A DNA stretch of 62,284 nucleotides, the filler included, from Hausera hauseri (lineage: Eukaryota): assembly GCA_046269625.1 (NCBI GenBank). It is 9 parts of 9 records of this genome, joined end to end, with 100 filler letters (N's around TTAATTAATTAA, not from the genome) between each part and the next. Parts side by side here need not be neighbours in the genome. Positions count along the whole stretch, not along the records: positions 52,960 to 62,284 come from JBJURY010362151.1; 8 more parts are not named here. One strand, 5' to 3'. The position numbers were made by a program, and so were the translations under genes. Positions 59,383 to 59,976 of this stretch are shown here, in pieces. A model generated the notes under the pieces. That model saw nothing but the letters and a program-made list of their open reading frames with translations, was not told where the DNA came from and ran no database searches. Positions within the stretch are counted from its first letter, which is position 1; the number at the start of each line of letters is the position of its first letter.

Positions 59383-59976
59383 CTATGACCAATTTGAACT
59401 TTCATCATTCTCAAAACCATCATCATTGAGTAGAATCGTTTTGTCGTCGTCATCTTCCATGGCAGTAATGTCTGAATGAGCATGGAAATGATATTTATAG
59501 TTTGTTTTGCAATGTACATTATTTTGATTCACTAAACCATTTATGTGGTTTTTAATTTGATTAATAATCGGTTCATAGTCCACTGTCTGAACACCGAGTA
59601 CAACAATTTTTCCACTGCTAAACACATTGACACAAAGTGGCCGAAACGATATAAGTCCCAGTGCAGGAAACAGTTCAGGTTCCTACGTACATTCAGTGGC
59701 CATTGCTAATTTGTACAGATTAATTCTTTGGTAGTCTAACTGAGTCGATACCGTTACTGATTGAATTTTGTCAGTGACAATTCCGAACTGTAGTAGTTTA
59801 TCAGCTGTCATTGGTTTGCAACAACCTATAATACAACACTTTCCCGGTTGAAATATAATGCACGTAAAATCCGGTGGGCACTTGAGTACATACTGCCTCG
59901 GCTTACATTGATTAAAAGGTAGTATGATAATGTCACACTCGGTAACATGTCCGCTATAGTTGATATTAGCTAACAT
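59383..59976 (-). pseudogene. Divergent TBP-like protein (Polinton-encoded), copy I; one in-frame TAG at 59683-59685
   Basis: CIIFQPGKCCIIGC, IQSVTVS, INLYKLA, *EPELFPAL, VNVFSSGKIVVLG; acidic tail. Confidence 0.85.

Follow-up and report, generated by a model that had tools for sequence, protein, structure and literature searches.

Does a Polinton encode a TATA-binding protein (TBP) of its own and, if so, what would the element use it for? This question is raised by a stretch of 62,284 nt from Hausera hauseri (hereafter, the window), in which the original prediction had placed a miniature TBP gene on a Polinton copy. The window is made of contigs concatenated by N-TTAATTAATTAA-N linkers, and neighbours across linkers are not physically linked. 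Because of these joins, the two Polinton copies that we analyzed are separate contigs: copy 1 occupies the contig 52960-62284 and copy 2 sits in the contig 7794-12412 (Table 1). The copy 1 contig holds pPolB, an exonuclease-like ORF, a dUTPase, the TBP-like gene, the packaging ATPase, the small gene c4 and the integrase; pPolB, the rve integrase and the A32-like ATPase are all present, and all broken. The exonuclease-like ORF (cluster c2) gave no Pfam match, and its label is our assumption from a sequence motif. Regarding capsid and protease genes, the window contains only the start of a penton gene in copy 2, both copies being cut off by ends; capsids and a protease (Pfam E 0.0015) occur in the relatives L013, L024 and L082, where we take the capsids to be such from their position. 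We found no terminal inverted repeats or target-site duplication in the two copies, which are cut by contig or window ends. Elsewhere in the window, an uninterrupted frame of 741 aa (27393-29618, plus strand) presumably belongs to a Penelope-type reverse transcriptase with a GIY-YIG end, and we assume that 37181-40994 (minus), 44000-45180 (plus) and 49670-52400 (plus) are fragments of Gypsy-like LTR retroelements; frames at 1248-1871, 6543-7016 and 22185-22733 resemble, in our judgement, RECQ4, IFT172 and a DEG/ENaC channel, respectively, which points to an animal as the source.

Table 1. Coordinates of the Polinton features and of the artificial linkers in the window.
Feature	Position	Strand	Remarks
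Artificial 100-nt linkers with TTAATTAATTAA	7694-7793, 12413-12512, 21218-21317, 26730-26829, 35391-35490, 39747-39846, 45524-45623, 52860-52959		
Copy 2: ATPase, c4, integrase, penton start	9322..11891	-	all broken
Copy 2: YATAAAC boxes	11891-11885 and 10672	-	first box 37 nt before ATPase ATG
Copy 2: TBP-like gene	11940..12412	+	frameshifted, ends at contig end
Copy 1: protein-primed DNA polymerase B	53244..56424	+	split over frames, many stops
Copy 1: accessory genes, exonuclease-like ORF (cluster c2) and dUTPase	57852..58696	-	
Copy 1: decayed downstream accessory gene, cluster c3	58789..59499	-	tblastn E 3e-5; several in-frame stops
Copy 1: TBP-like gene, short class	59494..59976	-	pseudogene, premature TAG at 59685-59683
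Copy 1: two YATAAAC matches upstream of TBP-like gene	59989..60010	-	copy 1 only; atypical, 0/46 related TBP genes
Copy 1: YATAAAC box	60026..60032	+	55 nt upstream of ATPase ATG (60081)
Copy 1: packaging ATPase (A32-like)	60081..60716	+	3 in-frame stops
Copy 1: YATAAAC boxes at 60708 and 60907	60708..60913	+	upstream of c4
Copy 1: conserved small Polinton gene c4	60939..61201	+	broken
Copy 1: YATAAAC box (61216) and rve integrase	61216..62284	+	3 stops, cut by window end

In copy 1, the translation of the minus strand from 59976 to 59383 gave the predicted reading frame of 197 codons, with a single in-frame TAG at codon 98; the strand had been left unstated. The TBP motifs quoted in the prediction are found in this frame, about 160 codons of which can be aligned to intact relatives, and residues 1-160 of one of these, P0002, share 71% identity with the translation of 59976-59494. 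With an X at the TAG, the ORF matched Pfam PF00352 with an E value of 2.2e-11 (43.9 bits, curated cut-off 22.9). This match covers the C-lobe only, while the long form L068 is matched in two stretches. A search of PDB sequences with the same ORF returned TBPs or TBP fusions in 35 out of 35 matches. The gene lies where it had been placed, between accessory genes and the ATPase: it stands head-to-head with the latter and upstream of the decayed accessory genes. The acidic tail that had been counted as part of the protein does not belong to it. The ORF continues for 74 residues after the last strand, in comparison with a median of 28 in 42 homologues, and the c3 gene has its own TATAAATA (59499-59492), 39 nt before a Kozak-type GCCATGG start (ATG at 59460). 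Since the homologues stop earlier and the next gene has its own signals at this point, we rule out the tail as a functional domain and read it as the beginning of the decayed gene downstream, which is in the same frame. The atlas look-alikes of c3 are uncharacterised viral proteins (best score 0.85), which we consider a lead only. In L006, L007, L013 and L027, c10 and c3 have the appearance of exons of a single gene, separated by GTAA...AG, an arrangement that would be unusual for Polintons.

Copy 2 has a TBP-like homologue at the same place, with 77.9% DNA identity to that of copy 1 over 466 columns (79.7% over 2858 columns of the element). The homologue in a second copy was thereby upheld. 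Its gene is not intact: it is broken up across frames and stops where the contig does. Stops or frameshifts are found in every core gene compared in both copies, and, in an alignment of 186 sequences, the copy 1 protein has unusual residues at several positions that are conserved in the rest of the family. Hence, the copies in the window no longer encode an intact TBP-like protein, and we turned to the relatives.

A protein search yielded 42 close relatives of 108-204 aa, and complete ORFs at the loci analyzed are mostly 136-194 aa long. In a profile search among representatives at 50% identity, 88 clusters scored at E ≤ 1e-30, and canonical TBPs appeared only low in the best 150. Scanning metagenomes, we confirmed 128 loci, 80 of which were used for the locus counts. 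Counting ATPase, integrase, capsids, protease and pPolB as Polinton core genes, we found at least one in 40 of these 80 loci, most of them short, and in 22 of the 25 with a length of at least 4 kb. The linkage also appeared in the opposite direction: among five contigs chosen by their ATPase alone, blind to the TBP, four carry a TBP-like gene, and the fifth is truncated. Comparing 61 intact genes, 50 pairs, not independent of each other, had usable divergence and gave a median dN/dS of 0.20 with a maximum of 0.75. In a tree of 55 rows, which took in neither TRF2 nor a labelled animal TBP and in which the clade stands on a long branch, 40 out of 40 class-A rows fell on one side of a branch with 100/99 support, separate from canonical TBPs and from one nucleocytovirus-like TBP. 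Here, class A refers to Polinton TBPs without the first intercalating Phe, in short and long forms, and class B to more canonical Polinton TBPs. The short forms are a 97/95 subclade that includes the closest relative of the window copy, and five class-B Polinton TBPs group with canonical eukaryotic and archaeal sequences and the nucleocytovirus-like one. According to these results, the gene, although decayed, genuinely belongs to a TBP clade that is widespread, linked to Polintons and subject to purifying selection, as expected from its description as a stable family gene.

Some elements have features of their own. The class-B element L096:2778-4042 (G004:C86) carries adjacent TBP and TFIIB genes (PF00352, PF00382, PF08271), and the glutamates of the stirrup are missing from this TBP, as one would expect of an orthogonal TBP-TFIIB pair. 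The more canonical TBP genes of L083, L092, L094 and L095 (G002) are each convergent with an ORF of 255-280 aa without Pfam match. Tandem TBP-like ORFs are found at L081:2026-3582, one of them with four Phe and the other highly diverged (Pfam E 9e-7). Besides, the Polinton contigs L082-L086 were binned inside bacterial MAGs, probably as contamination; L085, whose TBP was not seen, was assigned to class B from its integrase and ATPase.

To describe the protein we modelled the intact relative P0002 with AF2 (pLDDT 92.4). The model has the strands of both lobes, and helices H1 and H2 of lobe 1 are absent from it, in line with the shortened first repeat that had been predicted. The two-half saddle was recovered by Foldseek, with TBP chains from PDB matched at a best E of 5.5e-8 and a TM of about 0.56-0.72; the 44 PDB matches with E ≤ 0.001 were all TBP entries among the matches listed. 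Against BFVD, the best viral matches were nucleocytovirus TBPs, and proteins labelled as BcRF1 and UL87 gave weak fold matches (E 0.008 and 0.02, respectively).

Residues were counted in 186 aligned sequences of 135-300 aa, using yeast numbering. The alignment leaves an uncertainty of one or two residues in the Phe-99 column. The first intercalating Phe was scored by spacing: 166 of the 186 sequences have no Phe 17 residues before F116, a rule that misfiled P0078 as having kept it, placed L096 among those that lost it although the tree puts it in class B, and left four sequences unclassified. The loss of this Phe and the retention of the other three, first noticed in copy 1, are therefore family-wide, F190 being present in 164 and F207 in 165 of the 166. 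The glutamates that contact TFIIB are also kept in these sequences (E188 in 163, E186 in 142). On the DNA face, the 166 sequences carry V122R in 155 cases, T124M in 156 and L205N in 157, along with S or T at N159 in 158, V71N in 111 and I194R in 106. Because the replaced residues are near-invariant, we consider the DNA face changed and constrained, not eroded. In the long-class P0041, four of the five basic positions of H2 are replaced; judging from the short-class model and from P0041, the basic patch of the N-lobe is deleted in the short class and neutralised in the long class. No TFIIB was detected by Pfam in 67 ORFs from TBP-selected class-A loci, none of which is a complete element.

If the DNA face is constrained, one could ask which DNA it would be facing. 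We collected the 100 nt before the first ATG of 304 clustered ORFs, dereplicated to 246. Pooling seven core classes, the motif YATAAAC lies upstream of 77 out of 98 genes on the sense strand, with 3.8 in shuffled sequences, and is missing before the other 21. By class, it precedes 22/24 ATPase, 9/10 major capsid, 11/17 penton, 10/12 PLA2, 12/15 c4, 9/13 integrase and 4/7 protease genes, as well as 11/15 exonuclease-like and 5/5 LRR genes outside the pool. On the antisense strand, we observed no YATAAAC upstream of any of these classes. Measured to the conserved ATG of the ATPase, the distance of the box is 32-53 nt in 24 of 29 loci and 71-96 nt in three; two loci have no box. In the window, it is kept before the ATPase, c4 and integrase of copy 1 and before the ATPase and integrase of copy 2. 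Compared with TATAWAWR, YATAAAC deviates at position 7 and also allows a C at position 1.

The TBP genes themselves behave differently: YATAAAC precedes 0/46 of them, and a canonical TATA 20/46 (4.9 shuffled). An Inr-like TCA(T/C)(T/A) follows the canonical boxes of TBP, c15 and c17 genes in 18 out of 22 cases, mostly at +30 to +32, versus 2/43 after YATAAAC. The two atypical matches before the copy 1 TBP gene might reflect autoregulation, or chance. A different motif, TGTTTTA, is found upstream of 13/46 TBP genes (L038, L040, L043, L044, L047 and others; 1.8 shuffled), mostly where TATA is absent and in several cases 38-40 nt before the Inr-like motif. Downstream of the TBP gene, the presence of YATAAAC depends on which gene comes next: it is found before ATPase (12/12), exonuclease-like (4/5) and c38 (2/2) genes, in contrast to c15 (1/6), c34 (0/2), c24 (0/3) and convergent c17 (0/4) genes. 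Codon choice follows the box as well where it overlaps the tail of an ORF. There, Ile-Asn is written as ATA AAC in 29/45 cases, compared to 24/109 in gene bodies, and the codons spelling the box are used in 23/33 versus 12/93 cases for YK and in 10/20 versus 10/64 for HK. From this dependence on the downstream gene and the choice of tail codons, we conclude that selection acts on YATAAAC at the DNA level and that the box pertains to the gene that follows it.

We then compared the two classes of elements. In two class-A elements chosen blind to the TBP, by their ATPase, YATAAAC lies within 100 nt of 9/11 genes. In class-B elements it precedes 1/31 core genes, a contrast that involves about three independent class-B lineages, with four of the class-B contigs coming from one genome bin, so that Fisher tests exaggerate its significance. 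Along the capsid block, eight class-A loci have 73 boxes in sense and 6 in antisense orientation, and five class-B loci have 5 and 4, respectively. Of the class-B genes from one bin, 11/28 have ATAAA[AG]G (2.8 shuffled, maximum 7). A TAAGA box was not enriched in either set (class A, 9/98 vs 15.3 shuffled; class B from one bin, 6/28 vs 9.9). The difference in box between the classes could be explained by lineage or host, and the ATPase and integrase trees have weak resolution. As for Polintons devoid of a TBP, none of the 320 and 142 pattern matches from capsid and ATPase scans of viral contigs was a relative, and a phage collection gave no match. The suggestion that the protein is an initiation factor of the element gains specific support from this box, which is strand-specific, depends on the downstream gene and covaries with the class of TBP.

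We consider it likely that, in intact elements, the altered TBP is the element's own late-gene initiation factor, recruiting the host TFIIB, where 'late' is a label that we give to the box-bearing genes from their functions. The host TFIID would read the TBP gene early, from its canonical TATA and the Inr that lies 30-32 nt further on. The viral TBP would then bind the minor groove of YATAAACR, which it would favour over TATAAAAG, its remodelled N-terminal lobe accepting C at position 7. The C-lobe of TBP reads the 5' half of the box and the N-lobe the 3' half, changes at residues 194, 203 and 205 alter specificity, and C is disfavoured downstream in the box, as shown for the yeast mutant TBPm3 (PMC1636458); the DNA kinks at steps 1-2 and 7-8 of the TATA box (PMC10005294). 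The deviations of YATAAAC at both ends match the two ends where the Polinton clade is remodelled. Once bound, the conserved glutamate stirrup would recruit host TFIIB and Pol II and, without the basic H2 patch, the protein would escape control by Mot1/BTAF1, TAF1 and TFIIA. The ATPase, capsid, protease, integrase and other virion-module genes would thereby be switched on as one class.

One could argue that the box is read by a host factor (TBP/TFIID or a forkhead protein) or by the machinery of a helper virus, with the viral TBP otherwise employed and covariation arising only via lineage. ATAAACA fits the forkhead consensus, the independent class-B lineages are few, and the scans gave no TBP-less Polinton for comparison. 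A forkhead site would hardly account for the strict orientation of the box (77 sense against 0 antisense), nor for the presence of ATAAACG in 20/98 genes and the lack of excess of GTAAAC[AG] (3 vs 2.1). The C at position 7, disfavoured by yeast TBPm3, speaks against host TBP (PMC1636458), and the class-B elements of one bin carry the more canonical ATAAA[AG]G instead. We regard a host- or helper-read box as unlikely.

The protein might also serve as a decoy, tying up host TFIIB or sitting on host TATA boxes and damping host transcription without initiating any. The TFIIB stirrup is its most conserved surface, the short class has lost H1 and H2, and a TFIIB-like gene is absent from the 67 class-A ORFs scanned, all of which would suit a decoy. 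Yet the strands that face the DNA are all in place and bear new polar residues that hardly vary, which a pure TFIIB sponge would not need, and the covarying box would be left unexplained, making this idea rather improbable. Finally, YATAAAC could be read as a polyadenylation signal of the upstream gene, given that TATAAA and CATAAA are weak poly(A) variants and that the box is often near the 3' end of the preceding gene. However, it tracks the identity of the downstream gene, with 0/4 at TBP 3' ends facing a convergent gene, it precedes the ATPase in both window copies without a same-strand gene directly upstream, and AATAAA is not enriched (22 vs 19), so that we give this reading hardly any credence. 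Our preferred reading remains that of a late-gene initiation factor encoded by the element.

The closest known parallel comes from beta- and gammaherpesviruses. KSHV ORF24 is a viral TBP mimic acting on TATTWAA late promoters; in these viruses, promoters of the conventional kind serve the early genes, and a minimal variant of the TATA box serves the genes of the virion (PMC12529657). The vTBPs of this kind (ORF24, and the BcRF1 and UL87 type) and the Polinton protein are alike in that both are encoded by a virus or virus-like element, adopt the TBP fold and have a DNA face of increased polarity, and the distribution of YATAAAC (77/98 core vs 0/46 TBP genes) would parallel the use of a variant box for virion genes. 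The Polinton box varies from TATA at position 7, while the herpesvirus late box is TATTWAA. ORF24 differs in that it binds Pol II directly via an extra N-terminal domain, within a complex of six viral proteins, and is predicted to be incompatible with TFIIB (PMC12529657), whereas the Polinton TBP retains the TFIIB glutamates. The latter is a bare saddle of 145-185 aa, without the large N- and C-terminal domains of ORF24. In our analysis, it is neither a canonical TBP nor a herpesvirus vTBP, and it probably works like the latter.

Nucleocytovirus TBPs share with it the viral TBP fold and the loss of the N-lobe basic patch. This patch binds TFIIA, TAF1, Mot1/BTAF1 and Brf, and its loss in nucleocytoviruses was proposed to evade BTAF1/Mot1; these TBPs mostly come with a viral TFIIB, and the first TFIIB glutamate is conserved in about 40% of them (PMC7221094). 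In contrast, both glutamates are retained in the Polinton clade (142 and 163 of 166 sequences), the ORFs scanned at its loci included no TFIIB, and the clade is separate from the one nucleocytovirus-like TBP in the 55-row tree. Polintons are not mentioned in the main text of PMC7221094. With cellular TBP and its paralogues (TRF2/TBPL1), the Polinton protein shares the two-lobed saddle sheet, three of the four Phe and the EPELFP stirrup of the C-lobe, and it differs from them in lacking the N-terminal extension, the first Phe and, in the short class, H1 and H2, and in the replacement of seven DNA-facing positions.

Regarding previous reports, Starrett 2021 labelled a TBP gene in the map of MELD virus, an adintovirus-like PolB element (PMC8502044; bioRxiv 10.1101/697771). 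In the accessible text of that work TBP is a legend entry, and we found there no analysis of its residues, distribution or promoters; neither TBP, TATA terms nor the motif had a match in the readable part of its supplement, mostly network files. Among the matches listed in our literature search, where coverage of subscription journals was sparse, none analyses a TBP of Polintons or the YATAAAC box, and neither is found in the accessible parts of PMC12220804 or 10.64898/2026.06.19.733378. A TBP-like gene in an element with adintovirus-like PolB has already been noted in print.

The timing and drive of capsid gene expression bear on whether Polintons are autonomous viruses. With a TBP encoded by the element itself and a defined box, the control of these genes becomes directly testable, and YATAAAC provides a sequence marker for sorting Polinton genes by expression stage. 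A TBP of about 150 residues, without H1, H2 and one intercalating Phe, is also a natural test of the minimal needs of a TBP, and a possible orthogonal transcription tool. On a broader reading, which we hold to be evenly balanced between true and false, many Polintons would run their own early-to-late cascade, in which a captured bare-saddle TBP has co-evolved with a private promoter code, employs host TFIIB and evades host regulators. If this is true, the private code would be YATAAACR here and other boxes in other lineages, and Polintons would offer a natural minimal orthogonal TBP-promoter pair, a third solution beside the TBPs of herpesviruses and nucleocytoviruses.
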